Source: Bacillota bacterium (GTDB taxonomy: Bacteria > Bacillota > Sulfobacillia > Fermentithermobacillales > Fermentithermobacillaceae). Taken from it: DNA of 64,000 nucleotides. Shown in pieces: positions 1-27,241 of the stretch. The stretch spans positions 96,852-160,851 of the forward strand of contig JAXGOJ010000001.1 of NCBI GenBank assembly GCA_040767525.1, written 5' to 3'. The notes beneath the pieces are model-generated. The model was not told the origin of the DNA, searched no databases, and worked only from the letters and a program-made list of their open reading frames with translations. Both the position numbers and the translations under genes were made by a program. Each line of letters starts with the position of its first letter. The stretch's first letter is position 1.

Positions 1-577
1 CCAGGTTGAAGATGCCCCTGTGGTTGAGTGGGAGGACATGGTAGCCGTGGTTCCGAAACAGGGCCGGAATCCCAACCAAGATCACAGTAGCACGAGAAAG
101 TGAAGTGATAACCGTAACCCTGACTCCTATTGAAGTATCAGGAACGGGGTCATCGGTGTCAGGTCAGGCGTAACATTTGCACGCCTTGGCGTTTTGCAGG
201 GCATAAAGGAAGGGTTCCTGGAAACGTTCTACGTATCTTATGCCTGGATCACAGGTATTATTGGCATGATTATCGGAAAGATTGCCCCCGAAGTAACAGC
301 CTGTGGGAATAAGCCAGCTTCTTGGGAAGCAGCGAAACATGACCTGGGGCAGCTCCTCTACCTGATTGGTGCCCTTTCTGCAAACCTGGGCCTGATAAAC
401 CTCTTGCCAATTCCTGCTCTTGACGGTAGCAGGCTTTTGTTTGCAGGGATTGAAGCCATCAGAGGAAAGCCAATAGACCCTGACAAAGAAAGTTTTGTTC
501 ATTTCATCGGGTTTTTTTTGCTAATGATTCTTTTTGTCGTCATAACATACAAAGATATTCTAAGACTTATAGGGTAG
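1..577 (+). CDS. rseP: RIP metalloprotease RseP, 3' part (runs off window start; frameshifts near 70 and 150)
   Basis: C-terminal NLGLINLLPIPALDG motif and a final TM helix. Upstream PDZ-like text (VVEWEDMV.., KITVARESEVITVTLTP, GVIGV) lies in other frames. Usual rseP-ispG-polC order. Confidence 0.88.
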
Positions 578-657
578 ACTCAGAAACTTGTTTACCCTAA
601 GAAATCCTTAAATAAATAGATGTCTGCCATAATTAATGCTTTTTATAGGTGATAAGA

Positions 658-1748
658 ATGGCCCAATGTATTCGTTTGTTTAACCGGAGGCAAACCACGC
701 CTGTTAGGTGCGGGAGTGTAACCATTGGGGGAAATGCCCCAATATCCATCCAAACCATGACCAAGTGTGATACCAGGGATGTTGGGACTACTGTAGCCCA
801 GATCCAAAAAGCAGTATCTTGCGGCGCTGATATGGTTCGGGTGGCAGTGGTTAATAACGAAGATGCCAAAGCAATTGCCGAGATAAAAGAGAGTGTGCCA
901 TGCCCCATAGTTGCAGATATTCACTTTGATTACAGACTGGCACTGGCGTCTATGGAAGCCGGCGCAGATAAAGTCAGGGTTAACCCGGGCAATATTGGTG
1001 GGCGGGATTCATTGCTGAAAGTAGCCAGGAAAGCTAAATCCTTGGGTGCCGCAATAAGGATCGGTATCAATGCAGGCTCTCTGGAGAAAGACATTCTTGC
1101 CCGCTATGGGTCGCCGGGGCCGAAGCCATGGTGGAAAGCGCCAGAAAACACCTGGCGTATCTGGAGGATTACGGAATCGACGGAATAGTGTTGTCCCTTA
1201 AATCGTCCCGGGTAAGAGATACTGTTGAAGCATACAGACTCATGGCTGAATATACCCAGTGGTCGTTTCACATAGGAATTACAGAGGCAGTACCTGGGCT
1301 GCGGGCATCGCTAAGTCGGCTGCAGGAATAGGCACATTAATTGCCCTTGGAATAGGGGACACTGTAAGGGTCTCCCTGACAGAACCTTCATTTCTTGAAG
1401 TAGAAACTGCAAAAGATATTCTTCAGTCTATGGAAGCAAGACTTTTCATTCGACATAATATCATGTCCTACATGCGGGCGAACGCAAGTTGATCTGATTC
1501 CTATCGCAGAACAAGTTGCCCGGGGGCTAAGAGGGCTTAGAGTGCCGGTTAAAGTTGCTGTAATGGGTTGCCCTGTTAACGGCCCGGGTGAAGCCAGGGA
1601 AGCAGATATCGGCGTTGCTTGCGGGCGTGAAGGAGGCATTTTGTTCTCCCAGGGCAAAGTACTTGGTAGAGTAAGGAGCGATGAGATTGTAGATGCCCTT
1701 CTTGAACTTGCAGCCAGATATGCAGAATTTCCGGAGGGAGTAAAGTGA
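658..1748 (+). CDS. ispG: 4-hydroxy-3-methylbut-2-enyl diphosphate synthase IspG (at least 3 apparent frameshifts)
   Basis: Pieces in different frames: ISIQTMTK, VADIHFDYRLAL, RVNPGNIG, IRIGINAGSL, GIGDTVRVSL, ISCPTCGRT, VMGCPVNGPGEA (4Fe-4S Cys). Confidence 0.93.
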
Positions 1749-4700
1749 GCCGTATTATCGTAACACCTTCCAGTAAGGATTTTCGTCTGAGCAATATTGC
1801 TCAGGCCCTGGGCTTAGAGGAAGGCCGCATTGTAGAATGTCTTAAAGTAATGTCGATAACTGTGAACACCGAAGAAGCAGCCTGGTCCATTTCCCTTGAT
1901 GTGCATAGCGAAGAGGTATGGGCGAAACAAGCATCGTTGCTGTCACTGGATGATTTTGAGCTATGTCTGACGAGAATAGGCCAAGAGCTGAGAAACAATT
2001 ATCCTGGCTTGGAAACAGTACGCTGGGAACTTTCTGAAACTCACCAGAAACACCTGACTGAAACAACGAGCAAATCTACTGACCCAAAATTATACACACG
2101 CGACCGGCTAGGGGATAGTGTGCTCCTTGGGAGAGCCATCCGAACCCATCCTGTTCCGCTAAGTGAAATATCAGGCGGTGAAAGAGACAGCGTGACGGTA
2201 ATGGGACAGATAGTGGAAATAACTTGGAAACAGGCCCAGTCAGGAGATATGTACGGTTCTTTTGTTTTGACAGATGGATCCGGCTCAGTAGATGCAAGGG
2301 CCTTCCCCAAAGAAGGGAAGATAGACGAAATTCAGGAAGGGGCCTGGGTCCTGGTAAGAGGGCGTGCCAGAATTGACAGGCTGGATTCGGAACCTGTGCT
2401 CATTTGCAATGACATTTGCTTATCTCTTCCTGAATTAAGACAGGATGTATTCCCTGAAAAGCGGGTTGAACTGCACCTTCACACCAAAATGAGCGCCCTG
2501 GCTTCAGTTTTGGACCTGGGAAAAGCTATAGCCACAGCCGCGCGGTGGGGACACACCGCAATGGCAATTACAGATCACGGCATAGTACAAGCCTTTCCTG
2601 AAGCATTCCGCTTGGGGAAGAAGTACGGTGTTAAAATCCTATTAGGCCTCGAAGGTTACCTTGTTGAAGATGATGAGAAGGGACAAGCCTTTCACATAAT
2701 ACTGCTTGCCAGGAACAAACAGGGCCTCAGAAACTTGTATGAGCTGGTAACCTTGTCTCACCTTAAACATTTTTACAAAACACCCAGGATACCAAGGCAG
2801 CTTCTGAATGATAAGAAAGAGGGCTTGATTATTGGTTCCGCTTGCGAAGCGGGGGAACTATTCCAGGCCGTAATGGCAGGAAAAGACGAGAAAGAATTGA
2901 TGAAAATAGCCAATTTTTACGATTACCTCGAGATTCAGCCTTTGACAAATAACTCATTCCTTATAGACACAGGAGCTGTCCCAGGCGAAGAAAGCCTGAT
3001 AGAGATCAATAAAAAGATCTACGATTTAAGCAAAAAACTAAACAAACCTTGTGTAGCTACAGGGGATGTCCATTACGTAGACCCCGAAGACGAAATATAC
3101 AGAAGGGTGCTTCTTTCAGGCAAGGGCATGAGCAACAACGGAGAACGGCCTGTTCCCCTGCATTTTAGGACAACCTGTGAGTTTCTGGCGGAAGTTGAAT
3201 CCTATTTGGGCAATGAAGCTGCCAGGGAAGTTGTGATCACTAATCCTCAGGCTATAGCTGATTCAGTAGAGAACCTGGCTCCAATCCCTGAAGGTTTCTT
3301 TTACCCAACCCTTGAAAACTCTGACGAGATTTTAAGAAATCTCACGGAAAAAGGGGCATATCAGGTATTTGGTGACAATATACCTGATATGGTACGCCAG
3401 CGCTTGGACAAAGAACTTTCTGCCATCATTGGAAACGGCTTTTCCTCTTTATATCTTATTGCTATCAAAATGGTTGAAAAGTCCCTGGCAGACGGGTATT
3501 TGGTGGGCTCCCGCGGTTCTGTGGGTTCATCATTGGTAGCCCGGCTTACCGGTATTACCGAGGTCAATCCCTTCCTCCTCATTACGTGTGCCCAGAATGC
3601 CACTTAACAAGATTCATCCAGGATGGGTCATATGGGTCAGGATTTGATCTGCCTGCAATGAAGTGCCCCGATTGTGGCTATGAGCTCTTACGGGACGGCC
3701 AGGACATACCTTTTGAGACCTTTATGGGGTTTTCAGGAGAAAAAGTACCTGATATTGACTTGAATTTTTCAGGGGAAGAGCAAGGGGAGATGTTCAGGTT
3801 TGCCTCAGAATTGCTGGGAAAAAAGAACGTATACAGAGCAGGGACTATCAGCACAATTGCGAGAAAAACCGCCTTTGGTTTTGTCAAGCATTACGCCGAA
3901 GACAATGGCAAAGTATTCAGGCGGGCTGAAGAAGTCAGGCTCTCAAAAGGAATAGAGGGGGTAAAGCGTACAACAGGGCAGCACCCTGGTGGAGTCATGG
4001 TCATACCCAAAGGCATGGATGTTCTTGATTTTACACCTCTGCAACACCCTGCAGATGACAGGAACTCAGAGTCCATAACCACCCATTTTGACTACAACTC
4101 AATTTCCGGGCACCTTGTCAAAGTTGATATTCTGGGCCATGACGACCCTACTGTACTCAAAATTCTTCATGAGTTGACGGGTGTTGATCCCACTAAAATA
4201 CCTATGAACGATCCTGAAACCCTCAGACTGTTTTCAGGCGATGATCCGGATAAGGTTGTTGGCATTCCCGAATTTGGCACCAGGTTTGTCAGGAACATGC
4301 TGTCTGAAACAAGGCCAAAGTGCTTTTCTGATTTGGTCCGGATCTCAGGGCTTTCCCACGGAACAGATGTGTGGGCCAACAACGCCCGGGATCTTATCCG
4401 GGACAAAGTTGCTACCCTTGATCAAGTGATCGCCACCCGTGAAGACATATTTTTATACTTGATGACACTTGGAGTAAAGCCGGCGACGGCCTTCGGAATA
4501 GCCGAAAAAGTAAGAAAGGGAAAACCGCTTTCTAACGATGACATCAGTAGTATGAAAGCAGTATCGGTGCCTGACTGGTACATTGACTCATGCAGGAAAA
4601 TCAGTTATCTGTTCCCCAAGGCTCATGCCGCTGCATACGTCACAAACTCATTCAGAATAGCCTATTTCAAAGTTCACCATCCTCTGGCTTATTACTCAAC

Positions 4701-5133
4701 TTACTTTACCTTTGCAGGTGCATCATTAACCACAGACTTTATGTACCTGGACCCTGGCGAATGGAAAGAATACATTCAAAAAGTCAACGGTAATTCCAGG
4801 TCTACAGCCAGAGAACAAGACGTGGCAGGAGCCCTTGAACTGGCACTGGAAATGGTTCAAAGAGGATTTGCTTTTGGCCGGCATGACTTGTACGCGTCCC
4901 ATTCTGTAAGGTACATACCTGAAGGTTCCGAACTGATTCCGCCCTTTACCTCAATTCCCGGACTGGGAAACCAGGCAGCAACAGCCATTGCCGGGGCAAG
5001 AGAAATGGGTGAATTTGACTCTGTTGAAGATTTTAGAAAGAGAACGGGCCTTGGAAAGAAAATATGCGAGGCCATGAGAAAATACGGCCTATTTGATGGT
5101 CTGTCGGAAACAGCACAGTTGGCCCTATTCTGA
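1745..5133 (+). CDS. polC: DNA polymerase III alpha subunit, PolC type, without the exonuclease insertion (one frameshift near 3570)
   Basis: OB fold, PHP motifs (HLHTKMS, ITDHG, TGDVHY), GSRGSVGSS, Zn finger CPEC..CPDC, KVPDIDLNFSGE, RTTGQHPGG, YLFPKAHAAAY. Adding one C to the run in gtcaatcccttcct restores EVNPLPPHYVCPEC. Confidence 0.95.
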
Positions 5134-5182
5134 TTGGAAATTGGCCTGAAGCCAGGGTTCAGCCCCTCAGGGCCGCAGAGAA

Positions 5183-5212
5183 GCCGGCATGCAACATTGG
5201 ATGTATGCCGGC
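5183..5212. terminator. Hairpin between convergent polC and folT
   Basis: gccggcatgca / tgtatgccggc, 11-bp stem with one G-U pair. No clear U tract. Confidence 0.55.
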
Positions 5213-5227
5213 TGTTAATGATTATTC

Positions 5228-5776
5228 TTATAGGGGGGCTTGAGTTCTAAGGGCAATCCTGGATACGGGGCTATATACAGTCTTTAGGACCATAGAGTAC
5301 GTCATTATCTCAATAGCTCCGGCCACCAGCCTTGGCGGCATAATCACCCGGTAATCAAGCCCGAATATCACATGGAGAAAATAAGGGGTTAGCCCCCACG
5401 ATACAATGGCCGTTCCGCATAATACTGCAATTCCAAGATGAACAATTGAAGCCTGGGCGGCGCGTTCTTTGTTTTGCTTCGAAAGCCTGAACACAGCGCC
5501 TGGAATTGCACCCATGAGTGCCGATGACAAAGTAAAATGGGGCATATACACACCCATAGGGCTTAGCATGAAACCTGCAACATCCGAAAAGGCACCAGCT
5601 ATTGCACCATACCATGGGCCCAGGACAATTCCGGCAATTATGTTAGGCATCGACCCAAATCCAAGGCGAATTCCCTCTATTCCGCCAATGGCCAGCCTAA
5701 AAGAAGCGAATCTGGTCAAAATCACAGACAAAGCGATTAATATACCTGTCATTGCAAGAGACCGTGTTCTTTTCAC
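5228..5776 (-). CDS. folT: Folate-family ECF transporter S component
   Basis: ALSVILTRF, IRLGFGSMPNIIAGIVLGPWYGAIAGAFSD and YMPHFTLSSALMGAIPG pattern; about 6 TM helices; GTG start with GGAAGGAG RBS. Confidence 0.8.
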   Translation of the reverse strand: MKRTRSLAMTGILIALSVILTRFASFRLAIGGIEGIRLGFGSMPNIIAGIVLGPWYGAIAGAFSDVAGFMLSPMGVYMPHFTLSSALMGAIPGAVFRLSKQNKERAAQASIVHLGIAVLCGTAIVSWGLTPYFLHVIFGLDYRVIMPPRLVAGAIEIMTYSMVLKTVYSPVSRIALRTQAPL

Positions 5777-5803
5777 AAGCCCACTCCTTCCGGTTTAAAT
5801 TGT

Positions 5804-5863
5804 AGTACGCTTTTGCTTACCAGCCAACATCATATCAGATGTCAAAAACTGCTGATGCTTACT
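5804..5863 (-). promoter_or_regulatory. Candidate structured 5' leader of folT
   Basis: Nested stems seen by eye on the minus strand: AGUAAGC/GCGUACU, AUCAGC/GCUGGU, GACAUC/GAUGUU. It does not match the THF riboswitch consensus as I recall it. Confidence 0.3.
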
Positions 5864-5913
5864 TTAGCCTGGAACACTTTCCGCAAAATAGTAATGCCTA
5901 TATTTTCTGACTA

Positions 5914-5943
5914 TTGCAAAGTGGCCTGTACCAGTGATAGAAT
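5914..5943 (+). promoter_or_regulatory. SigmaA-type promoter of 6S RNA
   Basis: TTGCAA-N18-TAGAAT with an extended -10 TG. Confidence 0.6.
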
Positions 5944-5972
5944 CAAGTTGCAAAAGGCTTAAGCCTGGCAAT

Positions 5973-6152
5973 ACACCCTGCTGTGTGCGTGAATCACGGT
6001 GAAGATTGAGCCAACACCGTGACAAAGGGAGCCTGGACGCTGATGGGCGGAGTGCAGGTCGCCTTGGAGCGAAAGCACAGATGCTCACAGGAGGGCACCC
6101 ACCTGCTGAGGGCAGGTTCAATGCCTTCCGGGTTCACGGCATGGCGGGGTCT
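5973..6152 (+). ncRNA. ssrS: 6S RNA
   Basis: Ends pair (ccctgctgtgtgcgtgaa with ttcacggcatggcgggg). Firmicute 6S signature blocks TTGAGCCAACA, AAAGGGAGCCT, GCCTTGGAGCGA, GGGCACCCACCTG and GCAGGTTCAA are present. Length about 180 nt. Confidence 0.85.
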
Positions 6153-6219
6153 TGCATTCAGCACTCCAGGTGTGTTCGGTTCCTTATACAATTCACCGGG
6201 ATACAGGTGGATATACCGG

Positions 6220-6248
6220 TTGTAAACAATAAATTCCTATGCTAAACT
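6220..6248 (+). promoter_or_regulatory. SigmaA-type promoter of tRNA-Leu(CAG)
   Basis: TTGTAA-N17-TAAACT with TG extension, 12 nt before the tRNA. Confidence 0.55.
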
Positions 6249-6260
6249 ATCTTTTGACGT

Positions 6261-6347
6261 GCCGAAGTGGTGGAATAGGCAGACACGCGGTGTTCAGGGC
6301 GCCGTAGGCTCACGCCTGTGTGGGTTCAAATCCCACCTTCGGCACCA
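6261..6347 (+). tRNA. tRNA-Leu(CAG)
   Basis: Acceptor stem GCCGAAG/CTTCGGC, anticodon arm CGGTG-TTCAGGG-CGCCG, long variable arm, GGTTCAAATCC, encoded CCA. Confidence 0.97.
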
Positions 6348-6353
6348 TTTTAT

Positions 6354-6830
6354 TTACAGATTTCTCGAAAAGTGTTTATAGAAATCTTCATCGTTAAATA
6401 CAAGGAACCCATGCTCCTTCAGCAAAGCAGCAAGAACCCCGTCTCCCTCAATGAGCGTTTTCCGAAACTTGCCATCATATATTGAACCAATGCCGCATGC
6501 AGGGCTTCTTGCCTTCAAAACCGCCTTGGTACAGCCGGTCTTAAGCCCAATCAAAAGGCTTTTCCAGGCACCTAAAATGTAGTTTTCAGTGACATCGTCT
6601 CCGGCTGAATTAACCACTTTGGCTTTTCCCTGAAGTACACAGGCTCCTGTTCCACTCATAATCTCCGCAGGAGGCCGGGGAACAGGCAGGCCTCCGAGAA
6701 TCTCAGGGCATACAGGCACTGCCAGTCCTTGAGCCAGGAGTCTTTGAATGCCGGGATGCAGGCTAAGATTCCCTGTTGAACTATTGTAACGGCATTTATT
6801 ACCACATAAACAAGATGACACAAGATACAT
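6354..6830 (-). CDS. DUF523 family protein (2-thiouracil desulfurase TudS-like)
   Basis: VSSCLCGNKCRY, VPVCPEILGGLPVPRPPAEI and LKARSPACG give the conserved Cys set. ATG at 6830 with RBS. Confidence 0.85.
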   Translation of the reverse strand: MYLVSSCLCGNKCRYNSSTGNLSLHPGIQRLLAQGLAVPVCPEILGGLPVPRPPAEIMSGTGACVLQGKAKVVNSAGDDVTENYILGAWKSLLIGLKTGCTKAVLKARSPACGIGSIYDGKFRKTLIEGDGVLAALLKEHGFLVFNDEDFYKHFSRNL

Positions 6831-6879
6831 TTCAGAACTCCCCTTCGATATGGTATAACATGTACGGAGGTAGAGGGCC

Positions 6880-8100
6880 ATGTCAAAATCGAAACCAGGT
6901 TTCAGTCTAATTTTCGCATCTGTATTTGCTTTTGTCTTTCAACTGATTTTTCCTTTATTTATTGGCTATGGGACGGTACTTGCGGCACCGGAACCTCCCG
7001 AAATAGCCGCGGATAGTTACCTGCTTGCAGACCTCAAGACAGGCAGGGTGTTTATGTCAAAGGATATTGACAGCCCCCGGATTCCTGCAAGCCTTACAAA
7101 GATCATGACCTTATTCATCGCTTTTGATGAGATAGCCCAGGGAAGACTGTCTTTTGATGATGAAGTTTCCATATCAGAAGATGCCTGGCGAACCGGGGGA
7201 TCTACAATGTTCTTGCTGGTCGGAACGCAAGCAAAAGTAAGTGATTTGATTCAAGGAATTACCGTTGCATCGGGAAACGACGCATGTGTAGCATTGGCAG
7301 AGCATATTTCCGGGAACGCAACTTCGTTTGTGGATAAAATGAACCAGCAAGCACAACTCCTGGGGCTCACCAATACCCATTTCGTAGATCCCCACGGGCT
7401 TTCTGATGAAAACTCATTATCTGCACAGGATCTTCTTACCCTGGTCAGCACATACCAGGCAAGATATCCAGAAGCTCTTCAATTCCATTCACTTAAGGAA
7501 TTTACCTATACCCCTCCAGGCGAGAAGCCCATTACTCAGTTCAATAGAAACAGGCTGCTCTGGTCCTACCCGGGAGTTTACGGGCTAAAAACAGGGTTTA
7601 CTACCCGAGCAGGATTCAACATGGTTGCCCTGGCAGACAGAGACGGCTTCTCTACAATAGCTATAATCTTAGGGTCTGCCCGGGGAAAATCCATTGATGA
7701 CGGTGAAAGGGAAAGAACTACCCTTGTGACTTCAATGCTTGACTATGCATACAAGAATTTTGCCTTCGTTCAGGTGGCAGAACCAAACACCGGCATGGGT
7801 AAGGCCCGGGTGTGGAAAGGCAAGGGCAAGTGGGCCGATGCAGTAGCCCCAATTGGCCTGGGAGCGACAGTCGAAAAAGGTAAGGAAGATAAGGTGGCCT
7901 ATGAGGTAGTTCTTGATACAAACCTTGAAGCTCCGGTTGAAAAAGGCATGAAAATTGGTGAGGTAATATTTACCTGCCAAGGCCAGGAAATAGGGAGGAT
8001 GGAACTTACAGCAAGAGACCACGTTCCCAAAGGGAATTTCTTCAGAGTAGTCTGGGATCTAATAGCACGTTCATTACTAAGGGCTTTTGGCAAGGCATAA
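6880..8100 (+). CDS. D-alanyl-D-alanine carboxypeptidase (peptidase S11, DacA/DacF-like)
   Basis: Signal peptide, PASLTK (SxxK), SGN (SxN), KTG triad, PBP5 C-terminal domain. Confidence 0.92.
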   Translation: MSKSKPGFSLIFASVFAFVFQLIFPLFIGYGTVLAAPEPPEIAADSYLLADLKTGRVFMSKDIDSPRIPASLTKIMTLFIAFDEIAQGRLSFDDEVSISEDAWRTGGSTMFLLVGTQAKVSDLIQGITVASGNDACVALAEHISGNATSFVDKMNQQAQLLGLTNTHFVDPHGLSDENSLSAQDLLTLVSTYQARYPEALQFHSLKEFTYTPPGEKPITQFNRNRLLWSYPGVYGLKTGFTTRAGFNMVALADRDGFSTIAIILGSARGKSIDDGERERTTLVTSMLDYAYKNFAFVQVAEPNTGMGKARVWKGKGKWADAVAPIGLGATVEKGKEDKVAYEVVLDTNLEAPVEKGMKIGEVIFTCQGQEIGRMELTARDHVPKGNFFRVVWDLIARSLLRAFGKA

Positions 8101-8127
8101 CTCACATACCTCTTGGAGGCAAACACA

Positions 8128-9069
8128 ATGCACACCATGGTAGTTGCCCTGGGCGGAAACGCTATTTTGCAAAAGGGCGACAAAGGCACAGCAATGGATC
8201 AAAGAAGGAACATAGAAAAGACCGCAGTCCAACTCGCCAATCTTGTGCAAAAGGGCTACAAGCTGATTATCACACATGGTAATGGGCCACAGGTTGGGAA
8301 CATCCTCATTCAAAACGAAGCAGCCAGAAGTAAAGTCCCTGAAATGCCAATGGACATTTGCGGCGCTCAAAGCCAGGGGATGATCGGGTACATGCTACAG
8401 ATGTACATGCAGAATGCACTCAACAAGCGCAATCTGCAGATACCTGTTTCCACGCTTATTACCCAAACTCTGGTGGATAAAGACGACCCTGCCTTTTGCA
8501 ACCCCACAAAACCTGTGGGCCCTTTTTACTGTGAGAGCAAGTCTCAGGAAAGAGTAAGGAACTACGGAGAAACATGGATTGAAGACGCGGGACGGGGGTG
8601 GAGAAGGGTTGTGCCCTCTCCTGAACCAAAATACATTATTGAAACACCATCCATAAAAGCACTTGTGGAGCAAGGCCACGCCGTTATATGCAGCGGCGGT
8701 GGAGGAATTCCTGTTATCGTGGGCCAGGATGGATGTCTTCAAGGTGTAGAGGCTGTAATTGAGAAAGATCTGAGCGCCGAAAGATTGGCTACGTCGTTGG
8801 GAGCTGATAGCCTGCTTATCCTCACCAACGTAAATGGCGCAGCTCTGGATTATACAGCTTCAGGCCAGGTTTGGCTGGGCCGTGTGAAGATACCTGAACT
8901 TTTAGGATACCTGGCTGAGGGCCATTTTCTGGAGGGAAGCATGGGCCCGAAAGTCAGAGCAATCATAAGATTCATTCAACATGGCGGAAAATACGCAGTC
9001 ATCGCTTCTTTAGATAGGGCTGAAGAAGCAGTCAGGGGAGAAACCGGAACCATATTGACCCCTGACTGA
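8128..9069 (+). CDS. arcC: Carbamate kinase
   Basis: VVALGGNA, THGNGPQVG, GAQSQGMIGY, NPTKPVGPFY, RRVVPSP, GGGGIPV, GSMGPK. Confidence 0.95.
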   Translation: MHTMVVALGGNAILQKGDKGTAMDQRRNIEKTAVQLANLVQKGYKLIITHGNGPQVGNILIQNEAARSKVPEMPMDICGAQSQGMIGYMLQMYMQNALNKRNLQIPVSTLITQTLVDKDDPAFCNPTKPVGPFYCESKSQERVRNYGETWIEDAGRGWRRVVPSPEPKYIIETPSIKALVEQGHAVICSGGGGIPVIVGQDGCLQGVEAVIEKDLSAERLATSLGADSLLILTNVNGAALDYTASGQVWLGRVKIPELLGYLAEGHFLEGSMGPKVRAIIRFIQHGGKYAVIASLDRAEEAVRGETGTILTPD

Positions 9070-9101
9070 TCCATACAGATACATGATAGGGAATACCGAC
9101 G

Positions 9102-9127
9102 GTAGCCTCTATGTGCGCGGAGGCTAC
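9102..9127. terminator. Hairpin between convergent arcC and ddh
   Basis: gtagcctct / ggaggctac 9-bp stem. Confidence 0.55.
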
Positions 9128-9149
9128 TTAACCTAACAAGATTCCCTGG

Positions 9150-10037
9150 TTAAACCAAATTCTTGACCAGAGTTGCACGATCACCGGGTAGAAGATCAAC
9201 TGGGGGGATTTCTCCCATAACATAACACCCGGGTTCCAGGCGCATAGAGGCACGGGCCGCAGAAATCAGGATCTGGGCAGTAGCTGAAGGATTGGTAAGC
9301 CTCATCCTTAATTCGAGCAACTGATTATTGGCCGTACCTGAGCTGCCGATTCTTTCTACCTGCACACCGTGGCCGGTAACCCTGACTTTTTCCACATCCT
9401 CAACTTCGGTCACTCTTGTAACATCATGCACAAAATACGGGTCATCCTTAATCTTCCCGCTTATTTCATCGAAGTTGGCACCTTCTTCAAGCTCTATGTA
9501 AACATCCCGGTAGTGCTGTCCGTATCCTGTAGGAAGGGTCATAGAGATTGCATCTTTAACCCCGGGAATGGATTTTGCTGCCACACTATGTCCCATGCTC
9601 ATGCCCGGGCCAAAGTTCGTATAGGTAATGCCATGTGGCGCTATGGCCATGAATAACATGCGAATAACTGAGTCTGTGCCCGGATCCCATCCTGCACCGA
9701 TCACCGCAGTCCGGCCATTGTCTTTGGCATACTTGCTCAGTTTTTTCTTCAGCAAGAGCATCGAATCCCCATGAATATCGTAGCCATCGACTGTATTAAT
9801 CCCTTTGGCGAGATAGGCGGGGGCTACCGATGGAATCAGCCGGGAAGGAATGGTCAAAACAGCTACATCTACCTGGTTCAGCTCCTCAACCCGCCTGGTA
9901 AATCGAACTCCAGGGTTTTCAATGTTGCGAATCTCAACCACACCTGCAAGTTCCATGTCATTGGCCTGTCTTATACACTCTACCGCCTCTTTACCCACGT
10001 TGCCATAACCCACGACGCACACTCTGATTTTTTTCAT
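9150..10037 (-). CDS. ddh: meso-diaminopimelate D-dehydrogenase, Symbiobacterium-like type B
   Basis: VVGYGNVG, TVDGYDIHG, AGWDPGTDS, ITYTNFGPGMSMGHS, DPYF, GHGV..ER. It follows the S. thermophilum enzyme sequence as I recall it. Confidence 0.92.
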   Translation of the reverse strand: MKKIRVCVVGYGNVGKEAVECIRQANDMELAGVVEIRNIENPGVRFTRRVEELNQVDVAVLTIPSRLIPSVAPAYLAKGINTVDGYDIHGDSMLLLKKKLSKYAKDNGRTAVIGAGWDPGTDSVIRMLFMAIAPHGITYTNFGPGMSMGHSVAAKSIPGVKDAISMTLPTGYGQHYRDVYIELEEGANFDEISGKIKDDPYFVHDVTRVTEVEDVEKVRVTGHGVQVERIGSSGTANNQLLELRMRLTNPSATAQILISAARASMRLEPGCYVMGEIPPVDLLPGDRATLVKNLV

Positions 10038-10130
10038 GTCTAAGAACCTCCGAGTAGTTACTTTTCTTTGCAATTGCATTAACCTATCTATTGCCAAAAG
10101 CAAACATTCCAGGGTTCAGGATTTCTTTTC

Positions 10131-11204
10131 TTACTCACCCAATGAGGCTCTAATCACTACCTTTGCCAAATCAGGCACAAGATGAATCCACAATAACCCT
10201 TCCTCCAAACCCTCTCCATTATCGCCTATATGAAACTGGATGGGTTCTTTCAAAGATGGTTTACTCCAGGTTCCCTCACACATTACACCGTTTGAGAAAA
10301 ACAGGGCCTTTCCTTTCCCGGTAACATCCATGTCAACTTCTATGGCTTTTCCTTGGAGATATTCAGTATACACCTGCAAAAAGGCCAGGGTTTTGGGGGC
10401 GATTGATTCGCCCTTATCATTCACATGTTCCCGGCCGTTGATGAAGCGAATGTATCCTGAGTCTTCGTACCTATACTCAACCAGGTTAGGATACTTCGAA
10501 CTGTTAGAAAAGGCATACGAAACACCCAGGGCAGGTGTACCCTGTAATTCCCCGGTTGCGTAAAACTCAGGGTGAAAAGAGGCAAACCCTCGTCTGGAAG
10601 CGCCCTGTTCTATCTTAGTTATAGAAGTATACAAGTTGTCCGGGGCAGACCTGTCGTTGCTTCTCCAGAAGCATTCTCCGGCAGAATAAATCTCGTCCAG
10701 GCTCTTTGTTTTATGAGCCCTGATTATCTCAAAACTGTCTTCTGAGCCTCCACAATGGGCAAAAGGAATATCAAAGCCTACAGCTATTTGAACAAGAGGC
10801 TTTCTTGCGCTTCTCACAGGCCCGATCTTTTCCACTTTCTTATCAAACCCAGCCATAAGCCTGGTCATACCTCCCTCAGCAGGAACCTCAAAAACCACCG
10901 CCGCTTCAGAAAGGCCTGATTGAGGCCTGCCACTTGGGTTATTGCCAATACTAACCAAAAACATCCCCTCAAGAGCGTCTTCATCTGGCTCTTGAGGTTC
11001 GGCCGGGTCCGGAACAAGACTCGAGCCTGGATCCGCAGAAGGAGGCCCGGTGCTGTTGCGCCCTCGTGTGCAGCCTGAGAGGTAAAGAGAAAATAACATA
11101 AAGATCGCAAGGCTCAGGGCGGCAAAACCCATGACTTTTTTGCGATTACCTGCTTGAAGCAATCTTTGAGGCGAACTATCAGGACGCTTTGCTCTCATCA
11201 CCAT
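10131..11204 (-). CDS. DUF3048 domain protein, probable lipoprotein
   Basis: Lipobox-like LSGC, then GNNPSGRPQSGLSEA.VVFE.PAEGGMTR, IGPVRSAR and RSAPDNLY. Confidence 0.85.
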   Translation of the reverse strand: MVMRAKRPDSSPQRLLQAGNRKKVMGFAALSLAIFMLFSLYLSGCTRGRNSTGPPSADPGSSLVPDPAEPQEPDEDALEGMFLVSIGNNPSGRPQSGLSEAAVVFEVPAEGGMTRLMAGFDKKVEKIGPVRSARKPLVQIAVGFDIPFAHCGGSEDSFEIIRAHKTKSLDEIYSAGECFWRSNDRSAPDNLYTSITKIEQGASRRGFASFHPEFYATGELQGTPALGVSYAFSNSSKYPNLVEYRYEDSGYIRFINGREHVNDKGESIAPKTLAFLQVYTEYLQGKAIEVDMDVTGKGKALFFSNGVMCEGTWSKPSLKEPIQFHIGDNGEGLEEGLLWIHLVPDLAKVVIRASLGE

Positions 11205-11339
11205 AACAAAATCCCCTTTACTTAAATGCAAATAATATATGATTTGCCGGACATTGCTCTTTTCCTCTAAACCACCGGTTATTCCAAAAGACATGTCACT
11301 TACACAAAACCAAACATAGTGTTAGTAGAGGTGATTTTA

Positions 11340-12194
11340 GTGAAAACCTGGGGTATTGCTCTTGGTGCAGGGGGAATCCTTGGACTTGCCCACATCGGGG
11401 TTCTTGAAGCTCTTGAGTCTCACGGGCTCACACCCAATTTCTTAGCTGGAACAAGCGCGGGGGCAATAGTTGCCGGTGTGTGGGCTTCAGGCAAAACACC
11501 TGCTACTCTCAGAGATGAAGCCCGGCAATTGCTATTCGATGAACATGTGCCGTGGCTCCAATCCGGCGAATACCTGGTATTAAACCTCTCAAGTGCAATG
11601 GCTGTTTCGGGCCTATTGGACGGGCGTTGGTTAGAGACAATCATTGATAAGCTAACCGGCAATAAGAAACTTTCTGATATTCCAACCCACTTGTCTATCG
11701 TGTCTTGCGATCTGATATCAGGAGATACTGTGGTCTTTACTAATACAAAGTCTTATGATGTATCTTATAAGAGCAGGAGATACATCACTAATGCTTCTCT
11801 TTCTGTTGCCCTCCGGGCCAGTTCGTCTTTGCCGGGGGTTTTCGCCCCCAGGAAATTCGGCAAACATGAGCTGGTTGACGGAGGAGTCAAAGATATGGTG
11901 CCTGCATATGAAGTAAGAAGGATGGGTGCTCAGGAAGTACTTGCGGTGGATCTCGGTACCTATGCAGATCGCCCTCAAAAGGTTAAGGGGATACTTTCTG
12001 TACTTACAAGAAGTTTTAGCCTGTCTTCCCGAGAAAGAACGTTAAAACATCTTAAAAAACATGCTTCTATGACACTCCGACCTGAAGTCTGGGATATTGG
12101 CTTTCCTACACCATCGAAAATCAAGGAACTGATAGATTCCGGAAGGAATTGTGCAGAAGAAAACATGGAGCGTTGGCTTAATCTCATATCGTAA
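11340..12194 (+). CDS. Patatin-like phospholipase
   Basis: GAGGILG, GTSAG nucleophile elbow, DGG motif. Confidence 0.9.
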   Translation: MKTWGIALGAGGILGLAHIGVLEALESHGLTPNFLAGTSAGAIVAGVWASGKTPATLRDEARQLLFDEHVPWLQSGEYLVLNLSSAMAVSGLLDGRWLETIIDKLTGNKKLSDIPTHLSIVSCDLISGDTVVFTNTKSYDVSYKSRRYITNASLSVALRASSSLPGVFAPRKFGKHELVDGGVKDMVPAYEVRRMGAQEVLAVDLGTYADRPQKVKGILSVLTRSFSLSSRERTLKHLKKHASMTLRPEVWDIGFPTPSKIKELIDSGRNCAEENMERWLNLIS

Positions 12195-12256
12195 GAAAAA
12201 CATGACAGCTTCCAATCAAGACGGCTTGCACACAGGCTTCACAGGCTCAAAACCGG

Positions 12257-12285
12257 TTGACACCTGCCCAATGGAGAGGTATAGT
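12257..12285 (+). promoter_or_regulatory. SigmaA-type promoter of tRNA-Leu(GAG)
   Basis: TTGACA-N17-TATAGT. Confidence 0.7.
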
Positions 12286-12310
12286 ATAATTTGCTGATTT
12301 ACCGATGCGT

Positions 12311-12394
12311 GTCGGGATGGCGGAACAGGCAGGCGCGTACGTTTGAGGGCGTATGGGCAATCCCGTGCGGGTTCGATTCCCGCTCCCGACACCA
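12311..12394 (+). tRNA. tRNA-Leu(GAG); anticodon loop is 1 nt short as assembled
   Basis: Acceptor stem GTCGGGA/TCCCGAC, anticodon stem TACGT/GCGTA around TTGAGG (6 nt), GGTTCGATTCC, encoded CCA. Confidence 0.92.
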
Positions 12395-12560
12395 CTGATT
12401 TTAATCAGGTACCCCATTCATAACATTGGAGTAGACAGTATTCAACCCCGTAGTGTATCTAACATGCCATATATCATACGAAACACCAGCGGTTTTAAAT
12501 ATCAAACTCGACTTTGTGGTATAACATATAGTAATATTAGCAAAATGCCTATCCGGCCAC

Positions 12561-12848
12561 AGGCAATGACGGGGACGAGTAGATGGGAACTGGTATCAGA
12601 GAGCCGGCGCTTGGTGAAAAGCCTGCACTAAGCCCATTCGAATATCACCCCTGAGCCGGTAGGCCGAAAAACACAGTAAAAGCCAACCCGCCTTGCCCCC
12701 GTTAAAGGGCGTAAGAGTGAGCCGTCAGCCCGGTATACAGCTAAATGCTGAAATCAATCACCGCTGAAAACTCTGTCTACCGGCCGCGGCTAAAGTGGGT
12801 GGTACCACGGCAACTGTCGTCCCTTACCGGGGCGGTTTTTTATTTTGG
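12561..12848 (+). promoter_or_regulatory. T-box riboswitch (Ile specifier) upstream of ileS
   Basis: AGTA, AGAGA and GGTGAAA stem I motifs; specifier ATC at 12644-12646; T-box AAGTGGGTGGTACCACGG near 12793-12810; terminator cgtccct..ggggcggTTTTTT. Confidence 0.95.
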
Positions 12849-12879
12849 CCGGGCTTTTATAGAGTTGGAGGTGAGCGCC

Positions 12880-15800
12880 ATGGGAAACTTCAAACAAGTT
12901 GACCCAAAAAAGGTCGGTGATCGAAGTCGAAAACACCGTCCTTGACTACTGGAACTTGATATATCTGGCAAAAGCGTATCCATTCGGGAAGGAAAGCCAC
13001 AATTCGTATTTTATGAAGGCCCACCTACTGCCAATGGGCTTCCTGGTATCCATCACGTCTTGTCCCGAACCCTTAAGGATGTAGTCTGCCGCTACAAGAC
13101 CATGCAAGGCTACGGTTCGTCGAAAGGCAGGGTGGGATACCCACGGCCTCCCGGTGGAAATCGAGGTTGAAAAACGAGCTGGTATATCGTCCAAGCAGAA
13201 AATCGAAGATTACGGAATCGAACCTTTCAACAAGAAATGCCGCCAGTCTGTCTTCGCCTACGAAAAACAATGGCGGAACGCTCGAAAGAATAGCCTATTG
13301 GATAGATATGGATAACCCGTATGTAACTCTTGATAATGATTACGTTGAAACAGTGTGGTGGATTCTCAAGAAGTTCTTCGACGCAGGATTGATCTATGAA
13401 GGCCACAAGGTCATGCCATACTGCCCCCGTTGCGGTACTCCTCTTGCATCTCACGGGCCAGGGATACAAAAGAAGAGAGCGTGGATTCAATCTGTCAAAC
13501 TGAAAATCAAGGGCAAAGAGAACGAAAACCTTCTCATCTGGACAACTACACCCTGGACTTTGCCTTCGAACGTAGGAGTGGCTGTAAATCCTGACAATAC
13601 GTATGTCAGAGTCTCCTATGAAGGCCAGGTATATTATGTAGTCAAAGACCGGGCCATTGCTATTTTCGGCGAGAACCCCGAAATTCTTGAGGAGTTCTCC
13701 GGTAAGGAAATGGAGTTTCTCGAATATGAACAGTTGTTTCCTTTTGTGATACCTGATTCCAAAGCCTTTTTTGTGACATGTGCAGACTATGTTTCCACCG
13801 ACAATGGTACAGGCCTGGTTCACATTGCCCCTGCATATGGAGAAGATGACTACAGGGTCTGCCAGGAATACGGTTTACCCATGTTGCACCTTGTAGATGA
13901 GCGGGGCAAGTTCATAGATTCTGTCAGTGACTGGGCAGGCATGTTTGTCAAAGAGGCAGATAAGGAGATAACAAGAAAACTCCGTCGTGACGGTAAGCTG
14001 TTTGTGACTGAGCGGATTGTCCATTCTTACCCTCACTGCTGGAGATGTGACACACCGCTTTTGTATTACGCCAGAAAATCCTGGTATATTCAAACTACCA
14101 AGTTCCAGGACAGGTTGATTGCAAATAACAACAAAATAAAGTGGTTTCCGGAACACGTAGGCTCAGGCCGCTTTGGCAACTGGCTGGAAAACCTTGTAGA
14201 CTGGTCGCTTTCCCGTAACAGGTACTGGGGAACACCCCTTAACATCTGGAAATGTGAAGAATGTGGCAAGCTGCAATCTATAGGCTCCCGGGAAGAGTTA
14301 GCGAGGAGTGCCACTGAACCTGTTGACCTTGAAACTTTGGACCTTCACAGGCCTTACGTAGACAATATCTATCTTAGGTGTTCGTGCGGAGGTGCCATGA
14401 CAAGGACACCTGAAGTCATTGACTGCTGGTTCGATTCAGGTGCAATGCCTTACGCGCAGTGGCATTATCCCTTCGAACATAAAGATGATTTCCATGACCT
14501 TTTCCCTGCAGACTTCATTTGCGAAGGCCTGGACCAGACAAGAGGTTGGTTTTACTCACTTTTGGCCATATCAACATTCTTGTTTGACGAACCTGCTTTC
14601 AAGCAGGTTTTGGTCAACGATCTGGTTCTTGATAAACACGGACAGAAGATGTCCAAGTCCAAGGGGAATACAGTCAACCCCTGGGAACTCATAGATAAGT
14701 TCGGGGCTGATGCTTCAAGATGGTATCTTCTCGCAGTATCACCTCCCTGGGTTCCCACCAGGTTTGATGAAGATGGCGTGCGGGAAGTGGCCTCTCGTTT
14801 CTTCGGAACCCTTATCAACGTATATTCTTTTTTCACTATGTATGCCAACATCGATAAACTGGACCCGGCTGAAATTGATATTCAGGTTAAGGATAGGCCC
14901 GAAATAGATCGCTGGATTATCTCCCGCCTTAACACATTGGTTAAGACGGTTAATGAAAATATGCCTGGGTACGAGCTCACAAAAATCGTAAGGAGCATTG
15001 GGACATTTCTTGTTGATGAAGTAAGCAATTGGTACGTCAGGAGAAGCCGTGAACGGTTCTGGTCCAACGATTTTGATTTGGATAAGAAATCAGCATACCG
15101 TACACTTTATGAAGTGCTATTGGCCTTGTCCAAACTCATGGCCCCTTTTGCACCCTTTATCTCGGAAGATATCTACCTGAACCTTACCATGGGGAAGGCC
15201 ATGGAATCAGTGCACTTTGAAACCTATCCTGAAGCCAATAAGGCTTTAATAGACTCTGAACTCGAAGAAAGAATGGGCCTTGTCATCACTCTGGTGTCTC
15301 TGGGCAGATCCATAAGGAATAAGGTGCAGATCAAAGTAAGGCAGCCTTTGCGAAAAATAATGGTAAACAAGAAGCATCAGGGAGTATTGGGAAGTATGGA
15401 GGAGTTGGTAAAAGAAGAACTCAACGTCAAAGAAGTGGCCTACGTGAGTACTATGAGTGACTACGTATCTTACGAAGTGAGAGCAAATCTTCCTGTAGCA
15501 GGCCCAAAATACGGAAAGAATCTCAGGGCAATCATAGGAGCTTTGGGCCGTATAGATACTTCTGAGATAGCCAGAATAGTTGAAACCCGGAGCACATTCC
15601 CGGTTACAATTGATGGCAGGCAGGTGGAACTTGATAAGGAAGACATTGATATCAGGATTAAAGGCAGGGAAGGTTTCTCAGTGGAGGTTGAAAATGATAC
15701 TTTTGTGATCCTTGATGCAGAAATTGACCAGGAACTCGCCTGGGAAGGTATTGCAAGAGAGATAGTGTCAAAAGTACAGACTATGCGAAAAAACAGTGGG

Positions 15801-24105: not shown

Positions 24106-25749
24106 ATGAAAGTTCCCATAAAGGCTCCTAGAGGCAATTTGCTCAGCTGCAAGGGATGGCAGCAAGAAGCCGCCCTGCGCATGCTTATGAATAACCTCGA
24201 AAACGCGGAAAAACCTGACGAACTTATTGTATACGGTGGTACAGGTAAGGCAGCCAGGAATTGGGAATGCTACGAAGCAATAGTAAAATCCCTTAGGAAT
24301 CTTGGAGACGAGGAAACCCTCATGGTGCAATCGGGCAAACCGGTAGCTGTATTTCCAACCCACAAGTACGCACCAAGAGTGTTGATTTCCAACGCGATGC
24401 TGGTACCCAATTGGGCTACCTGGGATGATTTTTGGAATCTTGAGGCCAAGGGTTTGACTATGTATGGCCAGATGACTGCAGGAAGCTGGATATACATAGG
24501 CACCCAGGGAATACTCCAGGGCACATATGAAACCCTTGCATCACTGGCAGACAGGCATTTTGGAGGTACCCTCAAAGGTAAGTTAGTCCTAACCGCTGGC
24601 CTGGGCGGGATGGGAGGGGCCCAACCTTTGGCCATTACCATGAACGATGGTGTAGGGTTGATTGTTGAAATCGAGCGTGCCCGTATCAAGAGGCGACACG
24701 AGATCGGCTATGTAGATGTAGTAGCAAAGGATCTGGACGATGCTATTGCCATGGCCAGAAAAGCCCTGGATGAAGGCAACTCCCTTTCAATAGCCCTGGA
24801 GGGAAACGCATCTGACATCCATCCTGAACTGGTGAAACGAGGTATCATTCCGGATGTGGTAACAGACCAAACCTCGGCCCATGATCCTCTTAACGGATAC
24901 GTTCCCGGTGGCATGACTTTTGAAGAAGCCCTGGCCCTAAGGCAAAAAGATCGTGGCCGGTATGTAAAGCAATCTATGGAGTCCATGAGACGCCATTGTG
25001 AATCTATGGTTGAAATGCAAAAACGCGGAGCTATAGTATTTGATTATGGAAATAACCTGCGAGGCCAGGCCCATGAAGCCGGATTCAAAGACGCTTTTTC
25101 ATACCCGGGTTTTGTGCCGGCTTTTATAAGGCCATTGTTCTGCGAAGGAAGAGGCCCATTCAGGTGGGCTGCTCTTTCGGGAGACCCTGAAGATATTCTT
25201 AAAACAGATCAGGCAGTCCTAGAACTGTTTCCTGAAAACGCAAGTTTACGGCGCTGGATCACTAAAGCAGAAAAATCCGTGCCCTTCGAGGGTCTTCCAT
25301 CAAGAGTATGCTGGCTGGGTTACGGGGAGCGTGTTAAATTCGGCTTGAAAATTAACGAAATGGTAAGGCAAGGTGTTCTGAAAGCGCCTATTGTAATCGG
25401 AAGAGACCACCTTGATACAGGCTCTGTGGCATCGCCCTACCGGGAAACAGAGGGAATGAAAGACGGCTCAGACCCAATTGCAGACTGGCCAATCCTCAAT
25501 GCCCTGATAAACGCCGTATCAGGAGCCAGCTGGATTTCTGTTCACCATGGGGGCGGAGTTGGAATCGGACTGTCGATTCATGCAGGTATGGTAGTGGTAG
25601 CCGATGGCACTGACGACGCTGACTGGAGACTCAAAAGAGTGCTGAATACTGACCCTGGAATGGGTGTCGTCCGTCATGCCGATGCCGGCTACGAGAAAGC
25701 AATTGAAACGGCTAAACGGGGCAATATAGACATGCCCATGTTAGAGTAA
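24106..25749 (+). CDS. hutU: Urocanate hydratase
   Basis: [78 protein letters not shown]; intact 547 aa. Confidence 0.97.
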
Positions 25750-25782
25750 AAACCGTATATTTTGCTTTTGCAGAGGGAAACT

Positions 25783-25822
25783 TTTTCGAGCGCCCGACCC
25801 AAAACAGCCGGGCGCTCGAAAA
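25783..25822. terminator. Bidirectional-type terminator hairpin after hutU
   Basis: ttttcgagcgcccg / cgggcgctcgaaaa perfect 14-bp inverted repeat. Confidence 0.7.
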
Positions 25823-25910
25823 TTATTTGAAGTCCTTTGGAGGAAACACCGGGCCGGTAATAGAAAAGCGTATATGTACGCTAAGTAATCGGAAAGGCAG
25901 GCAGAGCTCA

Positions 25911-27211
25911 ATGATTAAAGATAAACTGAAAGAAACGGTTCTTAACGAGATAGACAAAAACCGGAAGAAAATCATTGATCTGGGACAAGATATAATGGCC
26001 CATCCAGAACTGGGATACAAGGAGGTTAGAACTTCAAATATCGTAAAGAAGGCTTTTTCCGAACTCAATCTTGACGTTACAGATACTTTGGGATAACCGG
26101 TGTATCAGGAGTGCTCTCTTCAGGCAAAGACGGACCTAACCTGTGCATTATGGGAGAACTTGACGCAGTTGTATGCCCGGGACACCCATATGCAGATCCT
26201 TTGACCGGGGCATACATGCCTGCGGACATAACGGACAGGTAGCCTCCATGATAGGCTCTGCAATTGGGCTTGTTGATTCAGAAGCGATGAAATACCTGTC
26301 AGGTAAGGTTACTTTTCTGGGAGTACCGGCTGAGGAATATGTGGAAGTAGAATACAGACAAAAACTCAGAAAAGAAGGCAAAATTCAGTTCCTCGGAGGA
26401 AAGCAAGAGCTTTGGCACAAGGATTCTTTGATAATGTAGATATGGCAATGATGATTCATATGGCTGCTCTGGGGCCTGATAAGAAGGTTATAGTAGGTGG
26501 GACTTCCAATGGATTTATCGGCAAACTCATCAAATACAAAGGCAAGGAGTCACATGCAGGAGCTGCGCCCCACATAGGCATAAATGCTCTTAATGCGGCG
26601 CTCCTGGGGCTTATGGGAATCCACCTGCAAAGAGAAACATTTAAGGACGAAGATCATATAAGAGTACATCCAATCATCACAAAAGGCGGAGATCTGGTTA
26701 ATGTCATTCCTGCAGACGTCAGGATGGAAACTTACGTGAGGAAAGTCCTGAAGCAATAATTGAGGCAAATAAGAGAGTAACAAGGGCCCTGAGAGCCGGG
26801 GCAGATGCCTTGAGCAATGGTTGAAATAGACGACATCCCAGGTTATCTGCCAAGGCGCAGCTGTCAATCCCTGGACGATGTGTTTAGGTACTATGCTGTG
26901 GCCTTGTTGGAGAACAGATGGTGGATACAGGCGCTCACGGTGCAGGATCGTCGGATATGGGAGACATAATGCATGTATTACCTGCCATCCATCCTTCATG
27001 CGGAGGAGCCAAAGGAGCAGGGCATTCTGAGGAATATGTAGTAGATGATCCTGAAACTGCGTATGTACTGCCGGCCAAACTACTTGCGCTTACGGCCATC
27101 GACCTTTTGTGGGGCGATGCAACCCTGGGAAAGGAAATAACAGACGAGTTTGAACCACTGATGACAAAAGAAGAATATCTGGATATGTGGGATCGAACAC
27201 TTTGCGACTAG
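25911..27211 (+). CDS. M20 family amidohydrolase (AbgB/ACY1L2-like), at least 4 apparent frameshifts
   Basis: HPELGYKE, GELDA, HACGHN, PAEE, MMIHM, GKESHAG.APH.GINAL, RVHPIITKGG, GSSDMGD spread over several frames. Confidence 0.88.
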
Positions 27212-27241
27212 AACCTGAAAAGAAGGGGGCTTGATGCCAGA

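Follow-up and report, generated by a model that had tools for sequence, protein, structure and literature searches.

The polC gene described here lacks, cleanly and in frame, the DnaQ-like proofreading exonuclease that typical PolC-type replicases carry within their PHP domain. It lies in the window, as we call the whole stretch of 64,000 nucleotides that was analysed, and is the single chromosomal orthologous polC of an uncultured anaerobic-digester member of the Bacillota, for which the closest relatives with a name carry the label Candidatus Fermentithermobacillaceae. Taken together, we consider it very probable that the gene encodes an intact, orthologous PolC of 1129 amino acids, that the exonuclease was lost in the ancestor of the order, and that a frame break and an alanine at residue 253 are consensus errors of the assembly; proofreading would then probably be left to the metal site of the PHP domain.

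Domain order and the junction in the PHP domain

The gene occupies positions 1745–5133 on the plus strand, as do all of its features given below, and codes for a C-family DNA polymerase III alpha subunit of the PolC type with 1129 amino acids if a single one-base assembly error is allowed for. As assembled, it is split into two open reading frames, namely (i) one of 620 amino acids (1745–3607) that comprises a short N-terminal domain, the OB fold, the PHP domain and the first part of the Pol3 core, and whose 3' end is an out-of-frame tail followed by a stop codon; and (ii) one of 515 amino acids (3586–5133) with the zinc finger, palm, fingers, HhH motifs and the C-terminal QLALF clamp motif. 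The Pfam order of the joined product (OB, PHP, Pol3 core, fingers, tandem HhH) is that of the PolC type, with the OB fold (PF01336, residues 150–223, 2192–2413) located on the N-terminal side of the PHP domain, which Pfam and the alignment place at residues 242 to about 452 (2468–3100). The CPEC...CPDC zinc finger, the PDIDLNF and KVDILGHDD motifs of the palm (3751–4128) and the beta-clamp binding motif QLALF (5116–5130) are conserved across the relatives, as expected for PolC, and the catalytic aspartates D670, D672 and D795 are invariant in their alignment.

When compared with NF001688, the NCBIfam equivalog model of PolC with 1445 positions and a curated cut-off of 873 bits, the two fragments from the window obtain 499.9 and 788.8 bits. 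The artefactual break in the frame keeps each of them under the cut-off, whereas the intact orthologues of the order reach 1130–1221 bits. The gene is located in a conserved rpsB-tsf-pyrH-frr-uppS-cdsA-dxr-rseP-ispG-polC block, and a profile search found no second PolC in the host genome or in the relatives.

The sequence-only reading had claimed that the exonuclease is missing without any disturbance of the frame, and the model comparison bears this out. The NF001688 match consists of the segments 201–409, 611–913 and 912–1444, and model positions 409 and 611 correspond to neighbouring codons of the gene (C1:98911–99528 for positions 201–409, then C1:99529–100425 from 611 on), so that positions 410–610, i.e. 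the roughly 200 residues of the DnaQ-like exonuclease, are absent in frame. Likewise, Pfam detects no RNase_T domain in the polC product. The PHP domain instead passes directly from GLEGYLVED into FHIILL, and the peptide that had been quoted as unbroken, GVKILLGLEGYLVEDDEKGQAFHIILLARN, is indeed found at 2627–2716 (residues 295–324). Within it, the junction proper, EGYLVEDDEKGQAFH (2651–2695), was delimited by NF001688 and the alignment and runs from E303 to H317, two metal ligands of the PHP domain that are separated by a linker of 13 residues. Three exonuclease-bearing PolCs from other families of the class show 188–198 additional residues at this point of the alignment, where the protein described here has none inserted, and in all 17 aligned exonuclease-less relatives the linker is about as short. 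The clean in-frame absence of the exonuclease is thus real.

An AlphaFold2 model of the polC product (40 homologues, mean pLDDT 84.9) predicts the junction as a tight and confident beta-hairpin with strands at residues 297–307 and 316–322 (pLDDT 85–88). The best fold match is the PolC of Geobacillus kaustophilus (3F2B/3F2C; target TM 0.92–0.93, rmsd 3.0–3.1 Å, 48% identity), which in the form of PDB entry 3F2B is also the best sequence match; an alignment to this protein, which had been suggested as a check, crosses the junction unbroken (E 6.6e-115). The N-terminus is modelled as one compact alpha/beta unit (residues 1–101, 1745–2047; predicted fold and Pfam), followed by a disordered linker (107–123). 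Even with the threshold raised to E = 10, no Pfam family matches the first 148 residues, and neither NI nor NII is found there. Since the PHP domain starts at residue 242 as compared to 337 in another exonuclease-less PolC that contains both NI and NII, the host protein's N-terminal region is about 95 residues shorter, in agreement with the short N-terminal domain that had been proposed from the sequence.

Independent contigs and errors of the assembly

When the frame-joined protein was used as the query of a database search, an intact protein of 1129 amino acids (P0003) was retrieved that differs from it at residue 253 only. P0003 is encoded on 21 other contigs, including the 234-kb contig L153 of the same species, and these contigs derive from at least seven runs. 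The length of about 1,130 residues predicted for the frame-corrected product is therefore matched by a naturally uninterrupted gene. Eight of these independent contigs, again from at least seven runs, were fetched, and all eight carry the same junction. Only two sites set the polC gene of the window apart from all of them, and neither had been recognised as an assembly error in the sequence-only reading. At 3569–3571, the window has a run of three C where the eight contigs have four, which is the source of the apparent frameshift; at 2502, it has a C in place of an A, so that the codon of the third PHP metal ligand (2501–2503) reads GCT (Ala253), as opposed to GAT (Asp) in all eight contigs and all relatives. 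Alanine occurs only in the host assembly, and Asp253 is invariant in every relative examined. Judged by this comparison with other assemblies, both the frame break and Ala253 are assembly artefacts. A programmed frameshift can be dismissed, as the frame is uninterrupted in the eight contigs and as the gene is collinear, without any shift, with its counterpart from the same genus (77% DNA identity; one gap of a single base within 3389 nt). The face-value interpretation of Ala253, a PolC devoid of any proofreader, is wrong.

Errors of this kind are frequent in the MAG. Over the 15.1 kb that window positions 1–15142 share with L153:8250–23390, we counted 35 mismatches and 22 indel events, i.e. 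roughly one indel per 700 bases. The indels are mostly 1–5 nt in length (largest 15 nt), and several of the differences are found at homopolymers or in GCCCTG/CCCTGG contexts (window positions 299, 1297, 1448 and 2502). In a comparison with the same-genus genome, the frame is broken in 32 of 180 long genes of the MAG, dnaE and a DinG-like gene among them, and from these counts we estimate that a gene of 3.4 kb would be expected to contain a frame break about half the time. Any finding from the window that depends on one residue or on a "frame-corrected" gene consequently needs to be checked against contigs such as L153. In a scan of metagenome contigs with the window protein, all matches were to distant relatives of no more than 52% identity, and their match spans are long enough for an exonuclease.

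Some further differences between the window and L153 lie outside polC. Directly upstream, ispG (gcpE, 649–1748) appears as several short open reading frames with indels at about 1119, 1297 and 1448, and is a single gene of 364 amino acids in L153. Between the minus-strand open reading frames 5228–5776 and 6354–6881, the window contains a 15-nt insertion, TCGGTTCCTTATACA, at 6176–6190, which could be either a strain difference or an assembly artefact. The GIHH signature of IleRS at 13045–13056 is also present in L153 (L153:21115–21444), and this motif is hence not an assembly error.

Given an assembly that is demonstrably rich in errors, one might ask whether the missing exonuclease itself results from a collapse or deletion in the MAG, with the real gene still carrying the domain. 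We regard the probability of this as negligible, since the identical junction occurs in eight independent contigs and throughout the order wherever the match is unbroken, and since the observed errors are mostly indels of a few nucleotides and include no losses in the range of 600 nt. It would also be conceivable that polC is decaying in the host population, such that the frameshift and the D253A exchange are genuine and DnaE1 has taken over replication. Both lesions are present in the sequence of the window, and some genomes of the same class (G028–G031 and G037) show no PolC match. However, the remaining protein is identical to the intact version found on 21 contigs, about one in six long genes of the MAG is broken in the same manner, the lost base lies within a homopolymer, and the substitution falls into a CCCTGG context of a kind at which indels recur in other parts of the window; decay therefore appears very improbable to us. 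Finally, the gene could represent an extra, accessory or mobile-element copy, with a canonical exonuclease-bearing PolC hidden in the 25% of the genome that was not assembled, and one additional PolC copy without exonuclease is indeed on record in Thermotogae (Timinskas et al., PMC3919608). The position of the gene within the conserved frr-uppS-cdsA-dxr-rseP-ispG-polC neighbourhood argues against this, as do the relatives that are 90–98% complete, including the single-contig genome G003, which possess only the exonuclease-less PolC, and such a second copy can hardly be expected. An intact chromosomal PolC from which the exonuclease is truly absent is thus the reading that we follow below.

Distribution in the order and the PolC tree

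PolC was found in all 36 species genomes of the order, which represent 10 genera and two families. In 31 of these 36 genomes the large NF001688 match starts at model position 610–614, and in the other five, the genome of the host included, the matches are broken by contig ends or by frame breaks of the assembly. Accordingly, no exonuclease was found at this place in any genome of the order with an unbroken match, and the suspicion that the state would be lineage-wide rather than unique to this organism is borne out both by these genomes and by the literature (PMC3919608). The uninterrupted polC reading frames in the order mostly encode 1135–1220 amino acids. The relatives carry the labels Bacillota bacterium, Eubacteriales or Ca. 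Fermentithermobacillaceae, the last of which NCBI assigns to the class Ca. Fermentithermobacillia.

In the PolC tree, the order forms one exonuclease-less clade with 100% SH-aLRT support, placed among PolCs of the clostridial type. From our point of view, the most plausible course is a loss of the DnaQ-like exonuclease from the loop of the PHP domain that took place in an ancestor of the entire order and would have left behind the hairpin of 13 residues. Across the sampled Bacillota, four changes of the exonuclease state are needed, of which at least three are forced by well-supported branches of a tree whose deep branches are only weakly resolved. The idea of one single ancestral loss shared by all exonuclease-less Bacillota is consequently unsupported, and the loss in this order may have been independent of that in other exonuclease-less PolCs.

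Five genomes of the same class (G028–G031 and G037) gave no model match of PolC strength. The first four show only matches of DnaE strength or to the exonuclease domain (about 1e-35 to 1e-38), and G037 has a single weak match to the PolC model (2.4e-21). This pattern could reflect either a heterogeneous class or the loss of PolC in some of its families.

Candidate proofreaders and comparison with known systems

The question arises how an enzyme of this architecture would be proofread. The sequence-only reading had named three options, namely the PHP site of the polymerase, a separate epsilon-like subunit, or no proofreading at all. The first of these fits best. The nine ligand positions of the PHP domain are H244, H246, D253, H278, E303, H317, C367, D441 and H443, and the resulting motif HHDHEHCDH, which has the form HHDHEH[C/H]DH expected of a PHP proofreading exonuclease with all nine metal ligands, is complete in P0003, in 17 of 17 aligned exonuclease-less relatives and in all 107 exonuclease-less database matches. 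Owing to the error at 2502, the motif appears in the assembled window as HHAHEHCDH. Since the exonuclease-bearing relatives in the same search also retain all nine ligands (13/13), this conservation is not specific to the exonuclease-less state, and a structural or other role of the site is possible. One exonuclease-bearing relative has a degraded motif, HHNSEHCDH, with two ligands lost.

As a partner polymerase, the host encodes a DnaE of the DnaE1 type, located outside the window on contig C27 (about 11800–15000, minus strand). Its best model matches are NF005298 and NF004226 (1094.5 bits for the latter, with a cut-off of 1002), all nine PHP ligands could be read in it by eye, and the co-occurrence with DnaE1 is that of the known exonuclease-less PolC subgroup. 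The frame of this dnaE is lost after about 849 residues, and the remainder is spread over other frames, consistent with assembly errors. For the separate epsilon subunit we found no support. A PF00929 search of the host genome and seven relatives found no stand-alone DnaQ, with the reservation that the host genome is about 75% complete and a small exonuclease could be missed there. The sole RNase_T domain in the host and six relatives (93–99% complete) forms the N-terminus of a DinG-like protein of 860–950 amino acids, and RNase_T is missing altogether from the exonuclease-less relative G036 (92% complete). In the host, the DinG-like protein is encoded outside the window on contig C12 (about 24800–27300) and shows a weak Helicase_C_2 match; its gene is interrupted by one TGA and one TAG codon, probably further errors of the assembly.

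One could therefore imagine that this DEDDh domain, as the sole candidate in the genome, proofreads in trans. Its DxE, HNxxFD and Hx4D motifs are intact in most relatives, and a precedent is cited in a recent survey, according to which DnaE3 is proofread in trans by the exonuclease of PolC (PMC12926913). The domain is, however, fused to a large helicase-like protein that resembles the DinG of many Bacillota with an exonuclease-bearing PolC, G036 lacks it altogether, and no small epsilon-like protein was found. A DEDDh enzyme is hence an unlikely source of proofreading, and we give this possibility only a small chance. It may also be that exonuclease-less PolC is not proofread at all. We rank the PHP site of PolC itself first among the sources and, as far as the retained ligands can tell, hold it to be somewhat better than an even bet. 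The polymerase would then carry out 3'-5' proofreading at its own trinuclear metal site, similar to DnaE1 of Mycobacterium tuberculosis and Pol III alpha of Thermus, and the PHP site of the host's DnaE1 may add to this as a second proofreader in trans. That the PHP domain serves as the only cis proofreader of the PolC-type replicase across the entire order is a view towards which we lean slightly.

To our knowledge, exonuclease activity of a PHP domain has been demonstrated for no PolC. If the proposed role is true, the exonuclease-less PolCs of this order and their cultured cousins would provide a natural system for a first such demonstration, and the repeated loss of the DnaQ insert, with at least three changes of state, would show that the insert is dispensable as long as the PHP site stays active. 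With the PHP domain as the sole in-cis nuclease candidate of the replicase, the 36 species would represent a natural experiment, and their order-wide state supports the notion of PHP as the ancestral proofreader.

PolCs of this kind have been described before. In the survey of Timinskas et al. (2014, NAR 42:1393, PMC3919608), 86% of the PolCs had the typical architecture, whose hallmark is a DnaQ-like DEDDh exonuclease inserted into the PHP domain, and 6% were without the insertion but are still counted as variants of PolC. The latter belonged, with one exception, to Clostridia and Negativicutes, and they always occurred in systems of PolC and DnaE1 and had a conserved PolC PHP site (PMC3919608). 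The protein described here resembles them in that it combines the PolC architecture minus the exonuclease with a DnaE1 rather than a DnaE3 partner and a conserved PHP metal site. A survey from 2026 that maps PHP and DnaQ proofreaders reports that clostridial systems usually have three of them (PMC12926913). Among cultured organisms, our searches retrieved exonuclease-less PolCs from Neomoorella thermoacetica (1214 aa), Thermanaeromonas toyohensis (1210 aa), Paradesulfitobacterium (1229 aa) and Thermanaerosceptrum (1238 aa), from which the host protein differs in that it is about 49–53% identical and belongs to a different, uncultured order.

The crystallised G. kaustophilus PolC construct of Evans et al. 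from 2008 was reportedly engineered to lack the N-terminal and exonuclease domains, and the natural PolC of the host resembles this engineered form (3F2B, 3F2C, 3F2D). In contrast to the host protein, native G. kaustophilus PolC has an exonuclease and a longer linker, and one of its PHP ligands is changed (GNVHY compared to GDVHY in the host); it is reported to show no PHP exonuclease activity (PMC5636811). Proofreading by the PHP exonuclease is known from DnaE1 of M. tuberculosis and from Pol III alpha of Thermus, which share the nine-residue trinuclear site HHDHEHCDH with the host PolC and have no need for a DnaQ partner, and in M. tuberculosis DnaE1 mutation of the aspartate equivalent to D253 abolishes the exonuclease (PMC5636811). 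Both are, unlike the host PolC, of the DnaE1 type with another domain order. It has further been noted that the loop which normally carries the exonuclease in PolC adjoins the PHP active site (PMC5636811). Overall, the exonuclease-less PolC is a kind of replicase known since 2014 to which the present analysis adds nothing categorically new, and it extends this kind to an uncultured order and to a shorter N-terminus.
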